The position numbers and the translations under genes are program-made. 64,000 bases of DNA, taken from NCBI GenBank assembly GCA_023444095.1, contig JAEZRP010000006.1, positions 1 through 64,000 of the forward strand. Direction: 5' to 3'. The stretch is from Bacillota bacterium (GTDB lineage: Bacteria; Bacillota; Clostridia; Christensenellales; Aristaeellaceae). The notes under the pieces are model-generated. The model ran no database searches, was not told the origin of the DNA, and was given only the letters and a program-made list of their open reading frames with translations. Below, piece after piece: positions 25,540-57,288 of this stretch (the first letter of the stretch is position 1; the number at the start of each line of letters is the position of its first letter).

Positions 25540-26325
25540 TTGGTGCGCCTGAGCGTTGAAAGCGTGTTCCTTTTCAACTTTGCGCTGGATGCGCTTACCA
25601 TCGCGGCGACGATCAGGCACAGAGTACGGCTGCGGCCCACACGGATACTTGCGGCGGCGGCGTTTGGCGGCATGTCCGCGTCGTATCTCGCGCTCGTTGG
25701 CGCAGGCGGTATCTTTCGCGTTGCCTCGGCGCTCCTGACCGCGCCCGTTATGGTGCGCGTCGCGGCCGGGAGGACGGGCCTCCGGACGCTTTTGGGCCTC
25801 TCGGCGGCGCTCATCTCCGTTTCGGCGTTCATGGCGGGCATCATGGGCGCTATGTCCGGCATATCATTTTGGGCATCGCTCCTTGCTTGCGTGACTTCCG
25901 CCATCGTGGCGGGCGCCGCGCTCGGCCTTCGGCGCAGATCGATGGACACTTGGGAAGCGTGGATTGAAATGAGCTACCGGGGCGTCAGGGTGCGCTTCCG
26001 GGCGCTGGTCGATACCGGGAATCGGCTGACGGAACCCTTAAGCGGTCTTCCCGTCATGATTGTCTCCCAAGATGAAATTGAGGAAATCCTTCCCGATGAT
26101 TTCTGCCCGGAGAGGGCGCTCGAGACACTTCCGCGCGGGTTCCGACTCGTTGGTTACGGCGGAGTCGGGGGCGCCGGTGAGCTTGGATGCTTCCTGCCGG
26201 ACGAGCTTGCGGCGGACACGGGCAACGGCGAACGGCCAATGGACGATATCTGGATCGCGGTCTATCCCGGCAAACTTCCCGGCGGGGCGGCGGCTCTCGC
26301 TCCGCCGATCTTTTTACATTCATGA
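25540..26325 (+). CDS. spoIIGA: Sigma-E processing peptidase SpoIIGA
   Basis: An N-terminal membrane domain and a C-terminal aspartic protease with LVDTGN. It uses a TTG start with a gaggtga RBS and is followed by sigE. Confidence 0.85.
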   Translation: MVRLSVESVFLFNFALDALTIAATIRHRVRLRPTRILAAAAFGGMSASYLALVGAGGIFRVASALLTAPVMVRVAAGRTGLRTLLGLSAALISVSAFMAGIMGAMSGISFWASLLACVTSAIVAGAALGLRRRSMDTWEAWIEMSYRGVRVRFRALVDTGNRLTEPLSGLPVMIVSQDEIEEILPDDFCPERALETLPRGFRLVGYGGVGGAGELGCFLPDELAADTGNGERPMDDIWIAVYPGKLPGGAAALAPPIFLHS

Positions 26326-26344
26326 TTGAACGGAGGGGAATGGA

Positions 26345-27049
26345 ATGGTCAACTCGATCAGCAAATCGATCTTCGGACTCGTCGTACACTTGAGGCGTGG
26401 AAACGTCTGCTACATCGGTGGGAGCGACACGCTCCCGCCCCCGCTGACGCGCGAGGAGGAACTTGCGCTCATGGCGCGCATGTCAGGCGGCGACAACGGC
26501 GCGCGCGCCACGCTCATCGAGCGGAATCTCCGCCTCGTCGTCTACATCGCGCGCAAATTCGAGAACACGGGAATCGGCATCGAGGATCTCATCTCCGTCG
26601 GCACGATCGGCCTGATCAAGGCGGTCAACTCGTTTGACGCGGACAAGAACATCAAGCTCGCGACCTACGCGTCGCGCTGCATCGAAAACGAAATTCTGAT
26701 GGTTCTCAGGCGGACGAGCAGACTGAAGCTCGAGGTATCCTTCGACGAGCCGCTGAATACGGACGTCGACGGAAACGAGCTTTTGCTCTCGGATGTCCTC
26801 GGAACCGAGCCTGACCTCGTCTCGCGCAACCTCGATTCCTCGATCGAGCGCGACACCCTCCGGATCGCGATTCGGGAACTCTCGACGCGCGAACGCAACA
26901 TCGTGGAACTCAGGTACGGCATCGGCGGCGGCAGCGAGCGCACGCAAAAGGAGGTCGCCGACATGCTCGGCATCTCTCAAAGCTACATATCCCGGCTCGA
27001 AAAAAGAATCATCGGAAAGCTTCGTGTGGAAATGGACAAAATGGCGTAA
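26345..27049 (+). CDS. sigE: Sporulation sigma factor SigE (pro-sigma-E)
   Basis: Near-collinear with the B. subtilis SigE I remember ([14 protein letters not shown]...[22 protein letters not shown]...[13 protein letters not shown]). Confidence 0.9.
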
Positions 27050-27087
27050 AACAGACTTTCGCTTGTTTTTCGCGTTTGCGCTGATTT

Positions 27088-27117
27088 GAATATCCGGCCT
27101 TCGCAGCGGCAATACTT
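27088..27117 (+). promoter_or_regulatory. Putative forespore (sigma-F/sigma-G-type) promoter: -35 GAATA, 15-nt spacer, -10 GGCAATACTT
   Basis: The pattern matches G(A/T)ATA-N15-GGnnAnAnT(A); it lies 22 nt upstream of the sigG ATG. Confidence 0.4.
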
Positions 27118-27139
27118 TGTCTGCTACGGAGGTGACGAT

Positions 27140-27913
27140 ATGCCATCCAACAAGGTTGAGATCTGCGGCGTGGACACGTCCACCCTGCCCGTACTCAACA
27201 ACGAGCGGATGCGCGAACTCTTCCCGCGCGTGCATGCGGGCGACGTCGAGGCGCGCAACGAGTTCATTCAGGGGAATCTCCGGCTCGTCCTGAGCGTAAT
27301 TCAACGGTTCAACAATCGGGGCGAGAGCGTCGACGACCTGTTTCAGGTGGGCTGCATCGGCCTCATCAAGGCCATCGACAATTTTGACGTGACCCAAAAC
27401 GTGCGCTTTTCCACCTACGCGGTGCCGATGATCATCGGCGAAATCCGGCGGTATCTGCGCGACAACAATCCGATCCGCGTTTCGCGCTCCCTCCGGGACA
27501 CAGCCTACAAGGCGCTGCGCGCGCGGGAAGCGCTTACCTACGAGCGCGGCCGCGAACCGCGCGTGGACGAGATCGCCCGGCAGATGGAAATGCCGGAGGA
27601 GGACGTCGTGTACGCGCTCGAGGCGATCCAGGACCCCGTGTCGCTGTTCGATCCCGTGTATCAGGACGGGGGCGACGCCATCTACGTCATGGATCAGGTG
27701 CGCGACAACCGCGTGAGCGAGGATGATTGGGTGCGCGACCTCTCCATCAATCAGGCGCTCTCGCGGCTCGCGGAGCGGGAGCGGAACATCATCAACCGCC
27801 GCTTCTTTCAGGGCCGCACGCAGATGGAGGTCGCGGAAGAGATCGGCATCTCGCAGGCACAGGTTTCGCGGCTTGAAAAGTCCGCGCTCCAGCAGATGCG
27901 AAAATATGTTTAA
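27140..27913 (+). CDS. sigG: Sporulation sigma factor SigG
   Basis: ...FDVTQNVRFSTYAVPMIIGEIRRYLRDNNPIRVSR... The start is at MPSNKV with a ggaggtga RBS, immediately after sigE. Confidence 0.85.
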   Translation: MPSNKVEICGVDTSTLPVLNNERMRELFPRVHAGDVEARNEFIQGNLRLVLSVIQRFNNRGESVDDLFQVGCIGLIKAIDNFDVTQNVRFSTYAVPMIIGEIRRYLRDNNPIRVSRSLRDTAYKALRAREALTYERGREPRVDEIARQMEMPEEDVVYALEAIQDPVSLFDPVYQDGGDAIYVMDQVRDNRVSEDDWVRDLSINQALSRLAERERNIINRRFFQGRTQMEVAEEIGISQAQVSRLEKSALQQMRKYV

Positions 27914-34579: not shown

Positions 34580-35542
34580 ATGGCCTACTGCGCGGAATCC
34601 TATGCGGCGATGCTGCTTTGCCTCTCGCTTTCCCCGAACAAGGAGGAATACGCGCGCCCGCTCGCGACGATTGAGTACCGCGACCTCGTCGAGCGCGTGA
34701 AGGCGACGTCCGCCCGGCGGCTGAGCGCGCTCATGAATGTCGACATCTCCGGCATCATGCAGCTTCTTTCGATGACCGAGGAGGAGGCGTACCGCGTCTA
34801 CATCCTCATGAGCCGCACGGTGCAGCTCTCCTATGCCATAGAGGGCTTCGCGGAGAGGGACATCCGCATTGTGACCGAATTCGACGACGAGTATCCGCTC
34901 CGGCTCTCCAAGCGCCTTGGCCCCGCCGCTCCGCCGGTCTTTTACCTCTGCGGCGACCATGAGGCGCTCGCACGGCCCTCCATCGGCATCCTCGGCATGA
35001 GCGGGATCAAGACCGCGGCCGAAGTGCGCGCGTCCGTGGAAGCGATCGCGGGCTTCTCCAGGCGCGCGGGCTACCGGGTGGCGACGGGCGGTGAACTGGG
35101 CGTTTCGCGCGTGACGGAAGGCTTCCTTCTTCCGGGCGACGGCGATCTCACCGCGGTCCTCGGCGGCGGACTCCTGGAATACGCGGAGCGCCCGGAGATT
35201 CGGACCCTTTTCAGGGAAGGACGCCTCGTCGCACTCTCGCTCGAGCATCCCGAGGCGCTCTTTACGACGGCGCACGCCATCGCGCGCAACAAACTCCTGA
35301 TGGCGCTTTCCGAAGCGGTATTCATCTTCAACACCGACGGCAAGCGCGGCGAATCGGACGCGCTCCGTTCGAAGGTCTGCGACTGGGTTTACGCCTGGGA
35401 CGGATATCCGGGCAACCAGCCGCTCCTCAACAAAAACGCGATCCCCTTCCACCAGCTCGACCCGAATGCGCTTCAGGAAATGGCCGCGCGCTGGAAGGAC
35501 TCCCGCGTCGAGCAGCTCGACATGTTCGATTTGTTCGACTGA
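34580..35542 (+). CDS. dprA: DNA-processing protein DprA/Smf (divergent)
   Basis: ...DDEYPLRLSKRLGPAAPPVFYLCGD... then IGILGMSG...VATGGELGVSRV...TAVLGGGLLEY matches the DprA Rossmann-fold pattern. An upstream TTGATA...TATACT promoter-like pair is present. Confidence 0.6.
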   Translation: MAYCAESYAAMLLCLSLSPNKEEYARPLATIEYRDLVERVKATSARRLSALMNVDISGIMQLLSMTEEEAYRVYILMSRTVQLSYAIEGFAERDIRIVTEFDDEYPLRLSKRLGPAAPPVFYLCGDHEALARPSIGILGMSGIKTAAEVRASVEAIAGFSRRAGYRVATGGELGVSRVTEGFLLPGDGDLTAVLGGGLLEYAERPEIRTLFREGRLVALSLEHPEALFTTAHAIARNKLLMALSEAVFIFNTDGKRGESDALRSKVCDWVYAWDGYPGNQPLLNKNAIPFHQLDPNALQEMAARWKDSRVEQLDMFDLFD

Positions 35543-35616
35543 CGCGCTCCTCTGCGCCCGCATATTTTCCCCGCACGGGGCAAACAATACGGGAAAAGCG
35601 CAGAGGAGTGGTTTTT

Positions 35617-36878
35617 TGAATCCGTTTGAACTAAGACCCATGCGGGTGGAGGACGGCATTCTCGACTGGAATAGCGTCTACCCCAAGCCCTACGATAAAA
35701 AAACCGTCGACCCCTACACCAAGGTCCGGATCATCCTCATGAACGGGATCGAGGTGGAGGAGGTCTTTTTCAAGCACCAGTTCGAGCGTAACTGCCGGAA
35801 CAACGACCTTCGGCGCGAGCTGGCGCTCTCCCGCCGCGTCGAGCAGCAGCAGCAGAAGCGCATCAACTGGCTCAAGCCCATCGACGAGACGGCGCTTGAG
35901 ACCACCATCGGATACGAGCACGTGGCAGTCGATCTGACTGCCTGGCTCGCGCAGAATGAGCCAAACCAGTACGTCAAGCAGGCGCTCGACTTCGCGCTGC
36001 TCGAGGACTTCGACCACCTGTACCGCTACTCGAACCTACTGGATCTCGACGCGCAGATTCCGGCGGAACAGCTCGTCAAGAGCTACGTGGACATCACGCC
36101 CGGCAGGCCCACCATCGCGGAGCACCGCTTCCCCTTTGATTCGATCAAGAACGCGACCGACTTCAAAACCGCCGATATCAGGACCAAGCTCAACACCCTC
36201 ATCATTACCTCCGGCGAGCAGCAGACCATGAACTTCTATATGAACCTCGGGAACACCTACTTCAACGACCTGGGCAGAAGGCTGTACCTCGAGATCGCGA
36301 TGATCGAGGAGCAGCACGTGAGCCACTACGGCGCGCTTCTTGATCCGAACGCGACGTGGCTTGAGAATCTGCTGCTCCACGAGTATATGGAGTGTTACCT
36401 CTATTACTCCTTCTGGCAGGACGAGCGCGACCCGAATGTCAAGTCCATCTGGGAACTGCACTTCAATCAGGAGGTCTTGCATCTGCACCGAGCGGCTGAC
36501 CTTCTCAGGCAGTACGACAACGAGGACTGGCAGGCGGTCATCCCGGGCGGCGCATTCCCTGCGCTCCTCCAGTTCCACGATACGCGCGATTACGTCCGCA
36601 ACATCCTCGCAAGCCAGATCAACCTGACCGCCCAGATGGAAAACTACACGCCCGTCGACCGTCTGCCGCCGGATTACGAGTTCTTCTTCTATCAGGACAG
36701 GGTCAACCATGACGTCAACGCCGTCGCAAGCCACACGGTTGTGACCGACCACCAGAAGCGCTTCAACGTGGATTACCGCGCGGAATCGCACCCGAACCCC
36801 GTCAAGGAGCTGCAGGACCGCAAGACGGACAACACCTCCGTCGCGCGCACCGCCAAGGTCGGGTCGTTCGCAAAATAA
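35617..36878 (+). CDS. Ferritin-like diiron-carboxylate superfamily protein (unknown function)
   Basis: ExxH/E motifs (IEEQHVSHY, LHEYMECY, NQEVLHLH) suggest a four-helix-bundle diiron site. I chose a TTG start with a gaggag RBS; an alternative ATG lies 8 codons downstream. Confidence 0.5.
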
Positions 36879-37081: not shown

Positions 37082-37255
37082 ATGGATGTGTATCTGTTGA
37101 TCTCCCATTTCGGGATTCCATGGAGCGCCAGCCCATGGAGGTTGGTTTGCCGGAGGCAAACCAAGTCGCTTCGCGACCGTGCGGATCCAATTGCCAGTCG
37201 ATCCGCACGCCGCTGGGAGGGCCTGGGGGCAGAGCCCCCGGACGTTCCTCCCCCG

Positions 37256-40200
37256 TTACGGCATCACGGGATTCGTGAAGTCGATCGTCTCGTCGTCCGT
37301 CATGATGAGCTGCAGGGTGTCGAGCCCGACGTAGGGCTTTTCGGCAATGAGGTCGATCATCTCGAGCGGGACGAACGCCGCGTCTTCCACATACAGGCCG
37401 TTGATGTAGGTCTGCAGGTTCAGAGCCGCGATCATCGTCGCCTCGTCAAACGTGCCCTCGACAGCGCTGCCCTCGACATTCGGATCGAGCGAGAGCCAGC
37501 CCCACAGCACCAGCTTCTGCTGGAAGGCGGCGACGTGCTCGGCATCGGACTTCGCGTCGAGCGGCTGATCCCAGACGAGCTCGGTCGGCATGGGTTCGGC
37601 TGTCGGCTCCGCCGTGGGCTCCGCAGTCGGTTCCGCCGTGGGTTCCGCGGTCGGCTCCGCCGTAGGCTCGGGCGTCGGTTCGGCCTCGGGGCGCACGAGC
37701 GTCACGTAGGACATTTCTCCGTCCGCCTCGGTTCCGTTGATGGGAACCGCGTACACCACCACGTAGTAGGTTTCGCCTTCCGCGAAGTTGGCGTTCTTGA
37801 TGGAGATGCTCGTCTCGGTGGTGCCGGTCAGTTCATTGATCTTCTCCTGGTTGCCGTTCAGGAAGTAGATGTTGTAGCTTGCCACGTCGCCCGACGAGGA
37901 CCAGCTGATTGTGATATTGTCGCCTCCGACGAGATATGCGCTGCCGTCGAAGTCCGCGTAGCCGGAGACTTCGATCTCAGGCACGCCGACGGTGTACACG
38001 GGCTCGGCCGTGGGTTCGGCAGTCGGTTCCGTCGTAGGCTCGACAGTCGGCTCGGCGGTCGGTTCTGCCGTGGGTTCCTGGGTCGGTTCGTTGGTCGGCT
38101 CCGCAGTAGGCTCCGCGGTCGCCTGCTGGATTGCCGCTACCTTGACGATCGTTTCGGCATCGCCGGAGAGCGTATGCGCCACGATCTTCAGGCCGTAGAC
38201 GGCTTCCGCGCCGAGCGCGTCGGAGGCAAGGTTCATGGCCGTCTTGTCGGTGCCCTCGACGGACTTGACGACGTCGCCGTTCCCGTCGAGCAGGTACACG
38301 TCGTAGGTCGCTTCGCCGCCGGTGGACGTCCAGGAGATGAGCGCCGGCTCCGCGCCGATCATATACACGTCGCCTTCAAGTGTCGCGCCCTCGACCGTTA
38401 TCACAATCGTCGCGGGCTGGGCGGGCTCCTGGGTGGGTTCCACGGTCGGCTCGACGGTCGGTTCTTCCGTCGGTTCGACAGTCGGTTCCGCCGTGGGTTC
38501 TTGAGTCGGCTCGTTGGTCGGCTCCGCAGTAGGTTCCTCGGTCGCCTGCTGGATCGCCGCAACCTTGACCGTCTCTTCGGCGTCGCCGAAAGTCGTATGC
38601 GCCACGATCTTCACGCCGTATACTGCTTCCGTACCGAGCGCATTGGAGGCAAGGTTCATGGCCGTCTTGTCGGTGCCCTCGACGGACTTGACGACGTCGC
38701 CGTTCCCGTCGAGCAGGTACACGTCGTAGGTCGCTTCGCCGCCGGTGGACGTCCAGGAAATGTGCGCCGGCTCCGCGCCGATCATATACACGTCGCCTTC
38801 AAGTGTCGCGCCCTCGACCGTTATCACAATCGTCGCGGGTTCGACGGGCTCCTGGGTGGGTTCCTCTGTCGGCTCGGCAGTCGGTTCCGCCGTGATTTCG
38901 GCTGTGACCTCCGCCGTGGGTTCGGGCGTCGCGAGCGCGACGGGCGCGATGGAAATCGTTTCCTCCGCGTCGCCGGAAGCGGTGTGCGCCACAACCTTCA
39001 GGCCGTAGGAGTTGTTCTGCTCGAGGTCGGAGGCGTCGAGCTGCATCGTCGTGTAGCTGGTGTTTTCGGCCTGCTTGAGGACGTTCCCTTCGCCGTCGAG
39101 GAGGTACACGCTGTAGGTCGCCTCGCCGCCGGTCGACGTCCAGGAGAAGGTTGCCGGTTCGACGCCGATGTAGTAGACGTCGCCGTCCATCGCCGCGTTC
39201 TCAACCGTGATCTTGACGCTCGTCGGTTCGTTCGTCGGTTCTGCGGTCGGCTCGGTCGTCGGCTCGGGCGTGGGTTCGGGGGTCGCCTCGGGCTGGACAG
39301 CGGCCACGTAGATGACCTGATCGACGTTACCCGCCGGAGCGTGCGCTTCGATCATGAATCCGTAGACCTTTCCGGCCTCGAGGTCAGCCGCGCTCATGGA
39401 GAACACGGTTTCCGCGTAATTGTCTGACTGGTTCAAGATGTTCCCGTCGGCGTCCATGAGGTACAGGCTGTAGCCCGTAACCTCGCCCGTCGTCATCCAG
39501 CCGATGGTTGCGGGGGTCTCGCCGATGTACCACACGTCGTCGATGCGGTTGGCGTTTTCAACCGTCACGGAGAGGGTCACATCCTCCGCTTCCTCGCCCT
39601 CCGTCGGGGGCTCGGTGGGATCGGGCTCCTCCTCGGTCGCCATCAGCGCGACGCTGGCGGTCTTGCCCTCGGATTCGTTGCCGTCCTCGGGGTAAGCGAG
39701 GATCTGCAGGTAGTAGGTTTCATCCTCAGTCAGTTCGTCGGGCAAGATTTGGAGGCTGCCGGTTGGGATGTCCTCGTACGACATCAGCACGTTCCCGCCG
39801 CCGTCGATGACGTAGGCGTTGTAGAGCATCCCGGCCACGGCCTCCCAGTTGATGGTCGCGCCGCTTCCGCCGATGATATAGATGTTGCCGTTGATGATGA
39901 CGTCGCCCGAGATATTGATGATCGGGACGATGATCGTCGGGCCGGGCGTCACGGAAGGCGTGGGCGTCGGCTCAATCGTCGGAAGGACGATGGGCGGCTC
40001 GGGGGTCGGACTCGGCGTGGGCGTCGGCTCGACGCGCGCGGGAGTCATGATGGCGATTTCGGTATACTTCGCATCGTCCATCGTGCCGTTCACGGGCACC
40101 GCGAATACGGCGATGTTGTACCGCGATTCAGCGTCGAGCGCGGTCACATCCAGCTGCATGTTCGTGGCGTTGAGCTTGCCGGCCTGCAGGTTGTAGCCGT

Positions 40201-42346
40201 CCTCGTCCCTGATTTCGACGTAGTACTCCTTGACGCTGCCCTCAACCGTCCAGGAGATGGTGATCATGGTGTCCTCGACGTAGAAGACGCCGGGCGTAGG
40301 CTGGGTCATGACGTTGGATACCGTGATGACCGGGGCCGTGATCACAGCGGGTTCGGGTTTTTTCGGCGCATCCGGCGAGAACAGCAGCTTCTGCGTCTCG
40401 ACCGTCGCGACGCCCGTCACGTCGAGGCCCGCGACCTTCTGGAACTCCTTCAGCGCGTTCTGGGTGTACTTTCCAAAGTATCCGGTCGTGTTTCCCTTGA
40501 AGTAGCCGAGCTGCTTCAGGCGCTCCTGGAGGTCGAGCACGCGATCGTTCTCGTCGCCCCGGCGCAGGGTGATGTAGCCGCTGTACTCGGGCGCGTTGTT
40601 GGCAAACAGCTTCTGCTGGAGAAGCGCGCTCGCGACGCCCGACTGCACGACGCCGATCTCCTTCTGGAAGAGCTTCACGGCGGCCTTCGTGGCCGAGTTG
40701 TAGGAGTAACCGGGCTTGCCCTCAAGATAATATAGCTCCTTGAGTCGCTTGTTGAGCTGGAGTACGCGCCAGCCGCTGTCGCCCTGATTCATCAGGAAGT
40801 AGGAGCTGCTGGACTTGGCCTTCGAACTGTACAGCGCGCGCAGCGTCTCGGAATCGGCGATGCCCGTCTCGTCGAGTCCGTTCTCCGACTGGAAGAGGCT
40901 CAAGCCGTCGCGGGTGTAGGGGCCGTAGATGCCGTCCGCCGGATCGGCCATGTAGCCGAGCGCGCGCAGCCGGGTCTGCATCTCCTGAACGCGCAGACCG
41001 CGCGCCCAATAGGAGATCTTGCGATAAGGATCAAACCGGGGCGGGTTTCCGTCGATCAGGAGCTCCTGAAATCCCCTGTCGGCGATGCCCGTGACGGTCA
41101 ATCCGTTGAAGTCCTGAAAGAGCTTTACGGCGTAGCGCGTCTTCGGGCCGTAAATGCCGTCGACGCGGTCATTGAGATACCCCAGTTCGGTGAGCGCCTG
41201 CTGAAGCGCCTTGACGGCATCGCCGCGGCTCCCGTAGCTGAGCGTCGCATACTTGGCGACGGGCGTCAGAATGTCCTTCGTGGTCTGCTCCGTGGTAAGC
41301 TTTGCGCTCGCGAGGAGGCTGAGGGCGCTTGCCTTTTCTACGGAAGCGTCGTCGTCATCGTCGGCGAAATCAAACACGAGGATGTCCTGCGGCTCCTCCT
41401 CCGCCCGCGCGTAGACGTTGAGCTGGCCGCTCACGGCGCTCAGGAAGACGTCCGTCATGTTGTAGCTGTCGGGAATGGTGATCTGCGCGAACGGGGAGAT
41501 GGCCCCGGTCGCGTCGTCGATCGCGTATACGAGGCCCGCGTCGTCCATGACGAGCGCGGTCGCATAGCTGGCGGTAACGCTCACGGGCTCCGCGTTCGGC
41601 AGCGCGATGTTCTGCCAGGAGAGCGTCTTGGGCGCGTACTGCATGAGCTGGCGCGCGCCGTCGACGTCGCGGATGTAGTAAAGATATCCGTTGATGCCCG
41701 AAAACTGATCGATGTCGGTCGCGATGAGCTGTTGGACGCGCTGAGCGGGATCGTCAAGGTAGAGCGCCCCGTCGCCCGTCAGGACGAGGTCTGCGCTTCC
41801 GAAGAGCGCGCGCTGTTCCCCGATCGCGCCGGAGAACGCCTCAACGGTCTGGAGCACGGGGTCGTAGACCATCGCGCCCGCCTCCGATTCAAAGCCGATC
41901 ACGAGGCCGTAGTTCGACGCCTGAAGGTATGAGACCGTCTCCTCGGAGGAATAGATCTCGCTCTTCGCGCCGGAGAACGCGATGAAATCGACGGCGGTGG
42001 GATCGGCCGCGGGGACATAGTAAACGCCGGCGCCGCCGAAACCGTTCGCCATCCTGACGCCCTCCACGAGCGTCGATTCCGCGTGGGTAACGATATTGAC
42101 GGCCTTGACATCATAGACGTCCTGTGCGGCCGTCTCGGAAAGAAACACGACGCGGCTCGCGTCGATCGAGACGAGGTCGTATGCGTCGGTCGCGTTGACG
42201 CGGCCCTCGTACCCGGTGAGCATAATGCCGCCGCTCGAGTCCAGATACGCCGATATGCGATCGTTCTGTACCGCGACGTCCGCATGCGCGACAAGCGATA
42301 CGCACATCAGCGCCGCAAACAGGGCGGCAATGAGATATTTCCTCAT
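37256..42346 (-). CDS. Giant secreted cell-surface protein (~1696 aa): signal peptide, N-terminal domain, 4x peptidoglycan-binding (PG_binding_1-like) domains, >=6 Ig-like repeats separated by (P-E/T-x-T) linkers, C-terminal PG-binding-like domain
   Basis: Signal peptide MRKYLIAALFAALMCVSLVAHA. Four GxxGxxVxxLQxxLxxLGY...DGIYGPxT..AVK.FQ repeats. Repeated ~100-aa modules (ITVEGATLEGDVYMIGAEPAHISWTSTGGEATYDVYLLDG...) are flanked by PEPTAEPT... linkers. The start is at MRKYL with an aaggagga RBS. Confidence 0.8.
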   Translation of the reverse strand: MRKYLIAALFAALMCVSLVAHADVAVQNDRISAYLDSSGGIMLTGYEGRVNATDAYDLVSIDASRVVFLSETAAQDVYDVKAVNIVTHAESTLVEGVRMANGFGGAGVYYVPAADPTAVDFIAFSGAKSEIYSSEETVSYLQASNYGLVIGFESEAGAMVYDPVLQTVEAFSGAIGEQRALFGSADLVLTGDGALYLDDPAQRVQQLIATDIDQFSGINGYLYYIRDVDGARQLMQYAPKTLSWQNIALPNAEPVSVTASYATALVMDDAGLVYAIDDATGAISPFAQITIPDSYNMTDVFLSAVSGQLNVYARAEEEPQDILVFDFADDDDDASVEKASALSLLASAKLTTEQTTKDILTPVAKYATLSYGSRGDAVKALQQALTELGYLNDRVDGIYGPKTRYAVKLFQDFNGLTVTGIADRGFQELLIDGNPPRFDPYRKISYWARGLRVQEMQTRLRALGYMADPADGIYGPYTRDGLSLFQSENGLDETGIADSETLRALYSSKAKSSSSYFLMNQGDSGWRVLQLNKRLKELYYLEGKPGYSYNSATKAAVKLFQKEIGVVQSGVASALLQQKLFANNAPEYSGYITLRRGDENDRVLDLQERLKQLGYFKGNTTGYFGKYTQNALKEFQKVAGLDVTGVATVETQKLLFSPDAPKKPEPAVITAPVITVSNVMTQPTPGVFYVEDTMITISWTVEGSVKEYYVEIRDEDGYNLQAGKLNATNMQLDVTALDAESRYNIAVFAVPVNGTMDDAKYTEIAIMTPARVEPTPTPSPTPEPPIVLPTIEPTPTPSVTPGPTIIVPIINISGDVIINGNIYIIGGSGATINWEAVAGMLYNAYVIDGGGNVLMSYEDIPTGSLQILPDELTEDETYYLQILAYPEDGNESEGKTASVALMATEEEPDPTEPPTEGEEAEDVTLSVTVENANRIDDVWYIGETPATIGWMTTGEVTGYSLYLMDADGNILNQSDNYAETVFSMSAADLEAGKVYGFMIEAHAPAGNVDQVIYVAAVQPEATPEPTPEPTTEPTAEPTNEPTSVKITVENAAMDGDVYYIGVEPATFSWTSTGGEATYSVYLLDGEGNVLKQAENTSYTTMQLDASDLEQNNSYGLKVVAHTASGDAEETISIAPVALATPEPTAEVTAEITAEPTAEPTEEPTQEPVEPATIVITVEGATLEGDVYMIGAEPAHISWTSTGGEATYDVYLLDGNGDVVKSVEGTDKTAMNLASNALGTEAVYGVKIVAHTTFGDAEETVKVAAIQQATEEPTAEPTNEPTQEPTAEPTVEPTEEPTVEPTVEPTQEPAQPATIVITVEGATLEGDVYMIGAEPALISWTSTGGEATYDVYLLDGNGDVVKSVEGTDKTAMNLASDALGAEAVYGLKIVAHTLSGDAETIVKVAAIQQATAEPTAEPTNEPTQEPTAEPTAEPTVEPTTEPTAEPTAEPVYTVGVPEIEVSGYADFDGSAYLVGGDNITISWSSSGDVASYNIYFLNGNQEKINELTGTTETSISIKNANFAEGETYYVVVYAVPINGTEADGEMSYVTLVRPEAEPTPEPTAEPTAEPTAEPTAEPTAEPTAEPMPTELVWDQPLDAKSDAEHVAAFQQKLVLWGWLSLDPNVEGSAVEGTFDEATMIAALNLQTYINGLYVEDAAFVPLEMIDLIAEKPYVGLDTLQLIMTDDETIDFTNPVMP
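38010..38855. repeat. Two near-identical ~423-bp tandem direct repeats inside the giant gene, encoding duplicate Ig-like module plus PT-linker units; more diverged copies extend roughly 37600-39700
   Basis: The DNA at ~38283-38420 and ~38706-38843 is almost identical. The spurious plus-strand ORFs 38322..38504 and 38745..39008 share the N-terminus MDVQEM.AGSAPIIYTSPSSVAPSTVITIVAG. Confidence 0.75.
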
Positions 42347-42520
42347 AACCGGTTCCTCCTTCATGGGTTATCTGCGTTTTAGACGCACCTCGAGCCACTT
42401 AGTTCCAAATCGGGCGAAAAATGGACTCGGTGTGTGATCGAATGATGAAACGATTTAATCCTGCGTTCGATTCCAATATGCGGAAAAATGTGCTATCATA
42501 CGTACATCGAACAGGTGTTC

Positions 42521-43554: not shown

Positions 43555-44025
43555 ATGAGATTTATGAGAATTGAGATTCGAAAAAAAGCAAGGACGATCA
43601 GATGCCTCGCGCAGGGGCGCACCCTGTTCACCGCGCCCGTCCAGCTCGGCTTCGGCGCCGAAGAAGGCGAAAAGCGGGCGGAGGGCGACGGGCGGACGCC
43701 CGAGGGAGAATACCTCGTGTCGTCGAAGAACCCGCAGTCAAAATTTTACCTCGCGCTGGGCCTCTCCTACCCGAACGCGGACGACGCGCTGCGCGGTCTG
43801 CGCGCGGACGCCATCTCCCTCGCCGCGTTCGATCGCATCGTCGCTTCGCCCGGACGCCCCCCGTGGGATACGCCGCTCGGCGGCTTCGTCATGATCCACG
43901 GCCAGCCCGGTGCCGGCGCGCGCGACGGCGACTGGACGGCGGGCTGCGTCGCGCTCCCCGACGCGCACATGGAGATGCTCTACGCCCTCGCCCGCATCGG
44001 TGACGAGGTGGTCATCCTGCCGTGA
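43555..44025 (+). CDS. L,D-transpeptidase catalytic-domain protein (YkuD/ErfK family) lacking a signal peptide
   Basis: ...FVMIHGQPGAGARDGDWTAGCVALPD... is the H/G...(S/T)xGC catalytic motif. I saw no N-terminal hydrophobic segment. Confidence 0.65.
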   Translation: MRFMRIEIRKKARTIRCLAQGRTLFTAPVQLGFGAEEGEKRAEGDGRTPEGEYLVSSKNPQSKFYLALGLSYPNADDALRGLRADAISLAAFDRIVASPGRPPWDTPLGGFVMIHGQPGAGARDGDWTAGCVALPDAHMEMLYALARIGDEVVILP

Positions 44026-54303: not shown

Positions 54304-57288
54304 TTATTGATCCGAAATCGACGTCGGGGGATTGCAGTAGCCGCAGTCGCCGAATCCGTGCTCGAGCGCGTACTGGAGCGTCACGGCGGTGCCATTTTTC
54401 ATGCCCGTGTCCTCGCACTTGGACGAGGTATGGTAAAGATACGAGCTCGAATCGCCCGACAGATCGACATAGACCGTGGTGTCTCCCGGCGCGGAGCTCT
54501 CTTCGCCCTCATCGCCGCCCTCGTCTCCCCCGTTGCCCGTTCCTGTGACGCAAATCGGGCAGGGTTTGAGGCCGTAGCCGAGCGCCTCCGCGAGCGTGCC
54601 GGATACGGCGCCGGAGCCGGCGCACGCGGCGTCGTAGTGATACGTCGTCGACCCGGAAACCGCGTACACCTTCTTTGCCGCGGCAGCGGCGCAGTCCGGG
54701 CAGGCGGTCAGACTGTAGTTGAGCGCGGTCTCGAGCGTCACGTACTTCGCGCCCGTCATGCCCCCGCAGTTCGACTTGGTATGGAAGTATTTGCCCGTGG
54801 CCGTCACGTACACCTTCATGCCGGACGTGCCGGAGGTAAACCTGCCGGAATTCGTGGGCGTTTCACCGGTCCCCGTGCCCGTCACACAGTTGGGGCAGGG
54901 CTTGAAGCCGTAGGCGAGCGCCTGGTCGAGCGTACCCTTCGAAGCGGAACTCCCCGCGCAGCTGGACGAATAGTGATAATACTTTCCACCCTTTGTCGCG
55001 TAGACCGTCTTGTCGGCGGAGGCGGCGCAAGCCGGGCAGGCGCTCTTGCCGTAATTGAGCGCCGTCTCCAGCGCAATCTTGGTCGCCGTACCCGTGACGT
55101 TCTTGCACGTCGCCTTTGTGTGGTAATACTTGCCCACAACGGTCGCGTACACGTCGATGCCGGATGTGCCGGACTCGTATGTCTTCGAGGAAGTCGGCGT
55201 GGTGCCGTCGGAAGTCGCGCTCCAGCAGACCGGGCACTTCTTCAGCCCGTGGACGAGCGCCTCGGCGAGCGTTCCCTTGACCGCGTTCGTCATGCCGGAG
55301 CAGGTTGCGGTCTTGTGGTAATAGGCATTGCCTTTCTGCGCGTACACGCTCTCGTTCGCGCTCGCGGCGCACACCGGGCATGCGGTCTTGCCGTCGTCGA
55401 TCGCCTGCTCGAGGAGCACCTTGGTCGCACCCTCGTCGATCTGGGAACAGCCGGTTTTGGTGTGATAATACTTCCCATTTTCAGTGGCGTACACATACAC
55501 GCCGGAGTAGCCGCTGTTGCCGTCGTCCGACGAGCCCGCACCGTCGCCGGTTCCGCCCGTGCCGTCTCCGGTTCCGCCTGTGCCATCGCCACCGCCTGCG
55601 CTCCAGCACTTGGGACAGGCCGTGAAGCCGTATGCCAATGCCTGCGCGAGCGTGGCGTCCTTCGCGTCCGTCATGCCCGAGCATGTCGCATAGGAGTGGT
55701 AATACTTTCCGCCCTCGCTGACGTAGACCTTCCGGGCGGCGGACGTCGCACAGATCGGGCAGGCGGCGCGTCCATCCTTCAGCATGGACAAAAGCGTCAC
55801 CTTTTCCGCCCCGGTCATGCTGGAGCAGGTGGAGTTGGTGTGATAATACTTGCCGCTCGAGGTCGCGTAGACGTAGACCGCGTTGTCAGTCGATTCCTCG
55901 CTGTTCGAGTAGAAATCGTCCTTCACGCACACGGGGCACTTCTTCTTGCCGAGAACGAGCGCCGCCGACAGGGTGATGTTCTTCGCGTTCTTCATGCCCG
56001 AGCAGGTCGGGTCGGTGTGATAGTATGTTCCGGGCTCGGTCGCATAGACCTTCTTGTTCGCACCCGCGGCGCAGGTTGGGCAGCCCGACTTTCCGCTCTG
56101 CAGCGCCGCGAGCAGCGTTACCTTCTTTGCGCCCGACATGCCGGAGCAGTTGCTCTTGGTATGGAAATACGTGCCGTTTGATGTCATGTAGACGTACACG
56201 CCGCTCTTGTCGTTCTTGATGCTCGCGAGATACTTTTCGCTCGCGGACTTTTCGCTGCCCTCGGAACCCTCGGACGAGGATCCGGTCGACGTCCCGCCCG
56301 CGCAAACGGGGCAGGGGGTCTTTCCCTCCGCCTCGGCCTCGGACTTCGTATAGGAAATGGCGTTCTTCATGCCCTGGCAGAACTTGTCGGTGTGGTACCA
56401 CTTGCCGTCCGCCGTGCCGTAATACACCGTGTCGTCGACCGCGCCGATGCAGACCGGGCAGGAGGTCTGATTGCGGTTGCGCGCCGCCGCGACGGTCATC
56501 GCCGTGATGGAAACGCCGGTCTCGATGTTCGAGCAGTTGGGATCGCTGTGGTAGTAGAGTCCGGTCTGCGGGCTGTAAACAAGCGTTTCGTCCGTCCCCA
56601 CGTCCCCCGACGTGGTGTCGCCGAGGTTCGCGAGGGGGGTCGGCGAGGGCGAAACGCCCGGCTCGAGCGTTTCGCTCGCACCGAGCTCACCCGTCGGCGC
56701 TGCGGAGGGCTCCTCTGTGGGCGCAGCGGTCGGCGCAGTCGTCACAAGGGTCATCTGGGGCGGCGTCGAGGTGTCGCTCCAACCGCCGAAAAGATTCGAA
56801 AAGATGAGAATCAGAAGCACGATGAACCAGACCGCGGCCACAGCCGACAGTCCGGCGCGCACCTTCAGGTCGTAGCGGTTCAGCCGCCAGAGCAGATAGA
56901 TGCCCAGCGGCGGAAGGACCGCGAGCAGCGCGAGCACCACCCACGCGTTGTTTTCTATGTATTCCATGACGGGGCCGGCCGACGTACGCGGCTCGCCTTC
57001 GCGATAATAGCCGTCCTCGTCCTCGTAATATCCGTCCTGTGCGCCCTCGGGCTCATATCCCTCGTCAGGCGCGTAATCGTCCGCGCGGTAATCGGAATCG
57101 TCCGCGCGAGTATCGCCGTACGGATCTTCCCCGTAAGGATATCCGGAGGCATCGTACGCCTCGCGCCCCTCGCCCGCCGAATCGTCCTTTCCAAACGCGA
57201 TTCGCTTGATGTCGCCCTCGCCCCAGCGATAGGCGAAGCCGTGCCTGGAAAGATTGAACTTCAGTTTTCCTATTTTATGCGTTGCCAT
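54304..57288 (-). CDS. Membrane protein (~994 aa) with acidic N-terminus, 2 TM helices, Pro/Thr linker and 13 tandem ~40-55-aa His/Cys3 zinc-ribbon-like repeats (YYHx4-5C-x19-24-CPxC)
   Basis: Repeats such as GKYYHTKSNCSGMSGAKKVTLLAALQSGKSGCPTC, GTYYHTDPTCSGMKNAKNITLSAALVLGKKKCPVC and KYYHSYATCSGMTDAKDATLAQALAYGFTACPKC recur 13 times. The positively charged inter-TM loop (RLNRYDLKVR) suggests the repeats face outward. Confidence 0.75.
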   Translation of the reverse strand: MATHKIGKLKFNLSRHGFAYRWGEGDIKRIAFGKDDSAGEGREAYDASGYPYGEDPYGDTRADDSDYRADDYAPDEGYEPEGAQDGYYEDEDGYYREGEPRTSAGPVMEYIENNAWVVLALLAVLPPLGIYLLWRLNRYDLKVRAGLSAVAAVWFIVLLILIFSNLFGGWSDTSTPPQMTLVTTAPTAAPTEEPSAAPTGELGASETLEPGVSPSPTPLANLGDTTSGDVGTDETLVYSPQTGLYYHSDPNCSNIETGVSITAMTVAAARNRNQTSCPVCIGAVDDTVYYGTADGKWYHTDKFCQGMKNAISYTKSEAEAEGKTPCPVCAGGTSTGSSSEGSEGSEKSASEKYLASIKNDKSGVYVYMTSNGTYFHTKSNCSGMSGAKKVTLLAALQSGKSGCPTCAAGANKKVYATEPGTYYHTDPTCSGMKNAKNITLSAALVLGKKKCPVCVKDDFYSNSEESTDNAVYVYATSSGKYYHTNSTCSSMTGAEKVTLLSMLKDGRAACPICATSAARKVYVSEGGKYYHSYATCSGMTDAKDATLAQALAYGFTACPKCWSAGGGDGTGGTGDGTGGTGDGAGSSDDGNSGYSGVYVYATENGKYYHTKTGCSQIDEGATKVLLEQAIDDGKTACPVCAASANESVYAQKGNAYYHKTATCSGMTNAVKGTLAEALVHGLKKCPVCWSATSDGTTPTSSKTYESGTSGIDVYATVVGKYYHTKATCKNVTGTATKIALETALNYGKSACPACAASADKTVYATKGGKYYHYSSSCAGSSASKGTLDQALAYGFKPCPNCVTGTGTGETPTNSGRFTSGTSGMKVYVTATGKYFHTKSNCGGMTGAKYVTLETALNYSLTACPDCAAAAAKKVYAVSGSTTYHYDAACAGSGAVSGTLAEALGYGLKPCPICVTGTGNGGDEGGDEGEESSAPGDTTVYVDLSGDSSSYLYHTSSKCEDTGMKNGTAVTLQYALEHGFGDCGYCNPPTSISDQ
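54330..56590. repeat. Imperfect tandem DNA repeats (~120-170 bp units) encoding the His/Cys3 modules
   Basis: This follows directly from the periodic protein repeats; the units are diverged, not identical. Confidence 0.6.

Follow-up and report, generated by a model that had tools for sequence, protein, structure and literature searches.

What is the giant surface protein encoded at positions 37256–42346, minus strand, of the stretch shown here, and what might switch its gene on? The stretch, called the window throughout, comprises 64,000 nucleotides (nt) of contig JAEZRP010000006.1 (assembly GCA_023444095.1), from a Bacillota bacterium of the Aristaeellaceae. A first-pass annotation, made from the letters, had reported a single giant secreted protein at this place, and that description stands: one open reading frame, opening with a signal peptide, encodes 1,696 amino acids (aa). 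On balance, we lean towards a protein that is docked on the cell wall, bears a polyanionic stalk, has no recognisable catalytic domain and is expressed by an extracytoplasmic function (ECF) sigma factor. We place it as a variant of the known modular Gram-positive wall proteins. New here are the propeller fold, the extreme acidity, the conserved family and the conserved ECF-type promoter; the last three had been overlooked at first pass.

The gene lies in one uninterrupted minus-strand frame (37256–42364) over the region flagged earlier. Its true start is likely the ATG at 42346, because AGGAGG precedes it by 8 nt and the equivalent methionine is where the closest homologues start. Counted from this methionine (M7), the coding sequence spans 37256–42346, with the stop codon at 37258–37256. 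The longest open reading frame starts at the ATG at 42364 and thereby overlaps the ribosome-binding site that serves the ATG at 42346 (42346–42364, minus strand), and six spurious residues (MKEEPV) may enter automatic annotation in this way. The mature protein has a mass of ~179 kDa, a net charge of about −178 and zero cysteine. The elements of the gene and its product are given below, with residues counted, here and throughout, from the upstream ATG at 42364.

42379–42406, minus strand: putative ECF-sigma-type promoter, GGAAC-N16-CGTCTAA (−35 GGAAC at 42406–42402; −10 CGTCTAA at 42385–42379)
42355–42360, minus strand: ribosome-binding site AGGAGG, 8 nt before the start at 42346 (sequence reading)
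42281–42346, minus strand: Sec signal peptide, aa 7–28, MRKYLIAALFAALMCVSLVAHA followed by DV, with the site between AHA and D and no lipobox (sequence reading)
41351–42280, minus strand: N-terminal seven-bladed beta-propeller, DUF5050-like, aa 29–338 (predicted fold)
40376–41263, minus strand: PG1–PG4, four PG_binding_1 domains at 75-aa spacing, aa 368–663 (Pfam, 203.9 bits)
40034–40339, minus strand: FN3-like module F1, aa 676–777 (Pfam, module alignment and hidden Markov model, HMM)
39632–39943, minus strand: FN3-like module F2, aa 808–911 (module alignment and HMM)
39290–39586, minus strand: FN3-like module F3, aa 927–1025 (module alignment and HMM)
38930–39223, minus strand: FN3-like module F4, aa 1048–1145, older paralogue of F5/F6 (56–62% aa identity)
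38462–38884, minus strand: 423-nt unit A (linker, F5, linker), with F5 at aa 1176–1274
38039–38461, minus strand: 423-nt unit B (linker, F6, linker), with F6 at aa 1317–1415, 90.5% identical to A
38645–38839 (copy A) and 38222–38416 (copy B), minus strand: 195-nt homogenised tract, 2 mismatches (99%)
37691–37999, minus strand: FN3-like module F7, a distinct module type, aa 1456–1558 (Pfam and alignment)
37259–37588, minus strand: C-terminal divergent PG_binding_1-like domain, aa 1593–1702 (profile–profile alignment)

In the window, the promoter motif stands 32 nt before the start codon. The 170-nt stretches that precede the family's start codons were aligned by eye and then searched with a pattern, which gave a consensus nGGAAC(C)-N16/17-CGTC(T/A)AA, usually 23–40 nt 5′ of the ATG. 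It lies no more than 100 nt from the start codon in 38 of the 39 usable upstream regions (the window and 38 loci), as against 33 of 4198 random 100-nt windows (0.8%). The positions AAC, GTC and the closing AA never vary, the C preceding GTC is found in 38/39 and the closest relative, L043, also carries the motif. Across the 64 kb of the window, the strict motif matches once, where chance would give 0.00.

Published hallmarks of ECF promoters are AAC at −35, CGT(C) at −10 and a spacer of 14–17 nt, and the −35 element of E. coli sigma-E reads GGAACTT (PMC5758882, PMC3397946). The window's motif shows the same −35 AAC, −10 CGT(C), 16–17 nt spacing and correct placement. With the promoters of the ECF regulons of B. 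subtilis (sigma-M/X/V/W) and E. coli (sigma-E) it shares the −35 GGAAC, the −10 CGTC and the 16–17 nt spacer. Unlike in those regulons, the promoter of the family precedes one structural gene, and not a sigma operon, in every genome examined.

Other readings of the conserved leader were considered. An RNA element found no support: Rfam gave no match in the leader, and two fixed blocks parted by a spacer of set length and variable sequence fit a promoter rather than an RNA element. Sigma-54, sigma-A and sporulation-sigma promoters were set aside after their consensus sequences had been compared with the blocks and spacing of the motif. In particular, the motif does not resemble the Bacillus subtilis consensus for sigma-E, F, G or K promoters.

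In the window, a relaxed form of the motif (GGAAC-N15–18-CGTC) shows no enrichment (9 found, 4.7 expected), so we claim no further regulon members there. Relaxed ECF-like copies (GGAAC-N-CGTC.AA) also occur 26–65 nt 5′ of genes for secreted proteins at three related loci: L015 (11244–11272, plus strand), L042 (2850–2878, minus strand) and L025 (977–1005, minus strand). The products behind them are a double VanW-domain protein, an Amidase_3 N-acetylmuramoyl-L-alanine amidase and an uncharacterised 303-aa protein. These genes are possible regulon members; their count is near chance and only suggestive.

A Pfam scan of the whole protein returned PG_binding_1 (in 4 stretches), fn3 and the PT linker repeat. 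PG_binding_1 (PF01471) scores 203.9 bits over aa 372–660 against a gathering threshold of 23 bits, which bears out the four such domains described at first pass, and fn3 (PF00041) scores 79.2 bits for the whole protein, over 4 stretches, against a threshold of 25 bits. Single modules score lower for fn3 (F7 29.4 bits; F5 12.9 bits). A family-specific iterated HMM together with sequence parsing gave seven FN3-like modules spanning aa 676–1558, where at least six Ig/FN3-like modules with P/T/E linkers had been proposed. The linkers between them, of the form (E-P-T-x)n, are 15–42 aa long, rich in P, T and E, acidic and stiff. The only basic segment of the protein is the PG1–4 block, with an isoelectric point of 9.2. 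NCBIfam gave partial matches only, via the PG-binding domains (SleB and others) and far under the cut-offs, and no catalytic domain was detected in the protein.

The first-pass annotation had seen no LPXTG, SLH or choline-binding anchor, and the searches agree. The motif LP.[TSA][GAN] occurs nowhere in the protein, whose C-terminus reads ...IDFTNPVMP, and the Pfam scan showed no SLH, CWB2 or CW_binding_1/choline-binding domain at E ≤ 1. Retention on the wall is most likely non-covalent, as had been supposed, through the PG_binding_1 domains and their divergent copy. The signal peptide is kept in the homologues, one of which is without the Cys, and cleavage probably falls at AHA/D.

The closest solved structures to the PG domains are SleB (6tci, 4fet), phiKZ gp144 (3bkh) and an ErfK-family protein (4lpq). 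The giant protein shares the PG_binding_1 domain with SleB, the phiKZ gp144 endolysin and L,D-transpeptidases, in four copies and far above the Pfam threshold. In those proteins, however, a catalytic domain is brought to the wall by 1–2 copies, whereas the giant protein has four copies and a probable divergent fifth, no catalytic domain, and a fusion to a propeller and a long stalk.

The putative fifth copy is less easily recognised. Taken alone, the C-terminal domain has no Pfam match at E ≤ 10, and an HMM made from PG1–PG4 of this protein gives it 1.3 bits only. The same HMM picks up the C-terminal domain as a fifth PG copy in 9 relatives, and a full-length hhalign comparison of the C-terminal family profile with the PG1–4 profile gave a probability of 97.8% (E 1e-12). 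The domain is thus probably a complete, divergent PG_binding_1-like domain with two insertions. A fifth copy had been proposed at first pass and is probably present; the description of it as partial does not seem to hold, since the alignment covers a whole domain.

At the other end, the N-terminal domain was modelled with AlphaFold from a 23-sequence alignment, which gave a confident, all-beta structure of 28 strands (predicted local distance difference test, pLDDT, 89.1; predicted template modelling score 0.83). A prediction from 4 sequences had a pLDDT of 49.5. The model matches BamB, the BamB-like Rv3035, prolyl-oligopeptidase propellers, YxaL and the seven-bladed EUBREC_1955 (3s25). We therefore assign the domain, with confidence in the predicted fold, to generic DUF5050-like seven-bladed beta-propellers and not to an enzyme. 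The earlier possibility that it belongs to a known enzyme class that explains the protein found no support from structure prediction and fold matching. DUF5050 itself (PF16472) is a weak match in the family: at E ≤ 1, it is hit by 19 of 23 N-domains, the best of them at 1.8e-7. The copy in the window has no Pfam match, DUF5050 included, and in this it differs from known DUF5050 propellers such as 3s25, EUBREC_1955 of Eubacterium rectale, whose fold the N-domain of the family nonetheless matches. Literature searches returned no functional information on DUF5050 or on the architecture of the giant protein.

How widely is this architecture shared? Relatives of the N-domain numbered 3 by a word-indexed search, 4 by an alignment search and 42 cluster representatives by an exhaustive HMMER search. 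In a scan of species-representative genomes, 42 loci were found, all in metagenome-assembled genomes (MAGs) of uncultured Clostridia from rumen, gut and digesters; the named hosts, mostly of Christensenellales type, are Christensenellales, Aristaeellaceae (L023 among them), Ca. Pullichristensenella, Ca. Faecivicinus and Ca. Faecaligallichristensenella. The best locus has 48% identity to the window's N-domain. Public records label the members only as ‘hypothetical’ or ‘peptidoglycan-binding’. An exact-protein look-up and two metagenome scans for same-species loci gave no same-species sequence.

In full-length relatives (over 1,100 aa), the propeller stands at the N-terminus of proteins of 1,160–1,850 aa. 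Every untruncated member follows one plan: the propeller, then exactly four PG_binding_1 domains at 75-aa spacing, then 2–8 FN3-like modules. Most complete members finish with a PG-like C-terminal domain, and all members are strongly acidic, with net charges of −70 to −276. By sequence reading, P0012 is without the PG-like C-terminal domain and has an apparent SH3-like segment and a long (PPGDPxTT)n tail, and in P0027 and P0029 a different C-terminal globular domain, of about 150–400 aa, replaces the PG-like one.

The number of modules had been expected to vary between strains, and the comparison among related genomes upholds variability at the family level only (2–8 modules across about 45 relatives). 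Near-identical adjacent pairs are found elsewhere in the family (L012 100%, P0021 100%, L034 88%, L001 86%, L015 76%) and appear to have arisen independently in several lineages. Contig ends cut 12 of the 42 family genes, 6 of them within the acidic linker repeats. Because of the 2–8 range, the recurring near-identical pairs and these cuts, module number appears evolutionarily labile and the gene hard to assemble.

At 38046–38887 of the window, Tandem Repeats Finder reports a period of 423 nt with 2.0 copies and 91% matches. Compared in register, units A (38462–38884) and B (38039–38461) agree at 383 of 423 positions (90.5%), and a repeat search on the units gave 191 nt at 98% and 300 nt at 85%. 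The copies are in frame and differ at 40 positions, with 18 synonymous and 15 non-synonymous codon changes, and no stretch of identity between them exceeds 114 nt. These differences are unevenly spread. Over the first two-thirds of the FN3 module runs a 195-nt tract with 2 mismatches, against ~32 expected from the divergence of its flanks (binomial P = 3e-13; Fisher P = 4e-9), and the remainder of the unit, together with the in-register similarity past the unit ends, is about 84% identical. The claim that two ~423-bp units are almost identical is thus correct for the 195-nt core and does not extend to the rest.

Recent duplication or gene conversion had been suggested, and two modules have indeed been recently homogenised. 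The F5/F6 pair would be most simply explained by an older duplication that a gene-conversion tract has recently overwritten in part, because homogenisation in the mosaic tract extends to synonymous sites. The next closest paralogue of F5/F6 is F4 (56–62% aa identity and 72% DNA identity over the core); modules other than the F5/F6 pair share 19–62% aa identity. By module orthology, F1–F4 are common to the window and its two closest full-length relatives. F5 and F6 come from an expansion of the F4 type that is specific to the lineage, and L001 and P0004 expanded the F7 type instead. A BLASTP self-comparison of the protein gave the identity match only, and register-shift and HMM methods were used for the repeats.

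Taken together, these features suggest how the protein might work. Sec would export it, and an ECF sigma factor answering an envelope or extracytoplasmic signal would switch its gene on. The basic PG1–4 block would dock the protein on peptidoglycan non-covalently and keep the propeller beside the wall as a binding platform, while the polyanionic FN3/linker stalk would reach through or past the wall. Module number would set the length of the stalk, and tandem duplication with gene conversion would change it; in the window's lineage, its history may have run from F4 to F5/F6 and lastly to the 195-nt conversion tract. The protein may serve as a shield, by charge or sterically, or else as a spacer or tether. 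Several points weigh against this account. A motif search of the window and of the 10-kb flanks of the loci, together with Pfam on most window genes, turned up no gene for an ECF sigma factor. The usual DG.FG motif is missing from PG3 and from the C-terminal domain. Topology is ambiguous because PG-binding-type domains stand at both ends of the protein. Moreover, the ECF assignment of the promoter and the binding of peptidoglycan by the PG domains are both drawn from sequence comparison.

Adhesin, phage receptor and spore layer had all been named as possible functions, and no evidence points specifically to any of them. The adhesin idea can be put in a sharper form, that of the fibrillar adhesins or ‘Periscope’ proteins (PMC8201768). 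Here, an FN3 stalk would project a binding domain, and near-identical repeats would change the number of modules between strains and so tune its reach. There is some likeness to SasG, Rib and Sgo_0707 (PMC8201768): the giant protein has a long Ig/FN3-like stalk with extended linkers and a high-identity tandem DNA repeat, and across the family module number runs from 2 to 8 among relatives, with adjacent pairs 86–100% identical in other lineages. Yet only 2 of the 7 modules are highly similar, so that in place of a long high-identity tandem array there is one pair (90.5%, with a 99% core) among modules of 19–62% aa identity, joined by long acidic linkers. Periscope proteins carry the anchor at one end and the ligand-binding domain at the other. 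In the giant protein, the wall-binding block adjoins the N-terminal head instead of lying at the opposite end, and the distal end is a PG-binding-like domain with no recognisable adhesive domain. It also lacks an LPXTG motif, so its attachment would be non-covalent. Finally, the ECF-type promoter suggests signal-dependent rather than constitutive expression, and the adhesin literature that we searched makes no mention of such a promoter. We regard an adhesin of this kind as possible and rather doubtful.

A role in sporulation or germination, as a protein of the cortex peptidoglycan, draws on a different set of facts. SleB is the best match of the PG_binding_1 domains, and the hosts carry sporulation genes. 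In the window, spoIIGA, sigE and sigG lie at 25540–27913 (plus strand), ~9 kb from the giant gene, with nrdR and a histidine kinase/response regulator pair in front of them. In L043, a spoIIGA-sigE-sigG-PPIase group adjoins the giant gene, with sigG ~2 kb away and one PPIase gene between. In a 14-locus subclade (L004, L005, L009, L011, L013, L014, L019, L020, L024, L026, L031, L032, L033 and L039), the gene is divergent from the spoIIIAA-AB-AC/AD-AE operon, about 50–400 nt away. Because of these operons in the window, L043 and the subclade, the hosts are likely endospore formers or descendants of them. The synteny, however, is clade-specific and involves differing operons, and the adjacency to spoIIIAA-AE may reflect chromosome neighbourhood only. 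The conserved promoter, for its part, is of the AAC/CGTC ECF type, which argues against direct control of the giant gene by a sporulation sigma factor. A cortex protein therefore seems to us quite improbable. Even less credible is that the near-identical 423-bp pair is an artefact of assembly, that is, a repeat collapsed or wrongly expanded. The frequency with which related genes are cut at contig ends, half of those cuts falling within linker repeats, gives the idea some ground. The two copies are nevertheless in frame and differ at 40 positions, their identity is unbroken for 114 nt at most, distinguishable linkers flank each of them and similar pairs are present in independent assemblies, so an artefact appears a very unlikely source of the pair.

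Christensenellales-type Clostridia are abundant in gut and rumen and mostly uncultured, and their envelopes have been little studied. A conserved family of giant wall proteins is now defined in them, and its N-terminal domain gains a confident fold. The main value lies in the ECF-type promoter, present at 38/39 loci, which offers an experimental handle on the cognate sigma/anti-sigma pair and the inducing signal. The stalk also provides a clean example of lineage-specific module expansion with gene conversion inside it, and a caution that short-read MAG assemblies often truncate the giant gene. One may speculate further, with little confidence, that the family is the dedicated output of an ECF sigma/anti-sigma pair in Christensenellales-type Clostridia: an inducible, peptidoglycan-docked polyanionic brush (−70 to −276) of tunable length. 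If so, the brush would alter the charge and sterics of the wall when the envelope is attacked. It might, for instance, sequester cationic lysozyme or antimicrobial peptides in the gut or rumen, and it would then be the equivalent, built from protein, of the envelope stress responses that modify charge.

The surroundings of the gene are those of a core chromosome, with sigA-dnaG, thyX, a two-component system, nrdR, spoIIGA-sigE-sigG, mltG, RNase J, Lon and EngB. Upstream and on the same strand lies radC, and the 156-nt gap between the two genes houses the promoter; downstream are a DprA-like gene and PfkB. No operon partner conserved across the family was found in the neighbourhoods of the loci. 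Synteny holds at clade level only (PfkB in 4 loci; DprA in L042 and L044), and the order giant gene-DprA-PfkB is common to the window and L044.

Some smaller features of the window may be recorded. A perfect 6-bp GC hairpin, GGGGGC-TCT-GCCCCC (37222–37239, minus strand), lies 17 nt 3′ of the stop codon of the giant gene, with no T-run after it, and is absent from the output of the terminator scan. Divergent from radC and ~1.2 kb upstream of the giant gene is a gene for a 156-aa protein with the YkuD (L,D-transpeptidase catalytic) domain and no obvious signal peptide (43555–44025, plus strand); this adjacency is not conserved in the family. The space that separates the DprA-like gene from the 3′ end of the giant gene contains an open reading frame of 412–470 aa (35466–36878, plus strand) with no Pfam match, and the syntenic locus L044 has no gene at its place. 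Finally, a 994-aa open reading frame at 54304–57288 (minus strand), also without a Pfam match, combines an acidic N-terminal region, one predicted membrane span and a P/T-rich linker with a tail of ~16 tandem repeats of ~45 aa, ‘VYaT..G.YYHt...C.gm......TL..AL..G...CP.C’, whose paired cysteines resemble small zinc-ribbon-type units.

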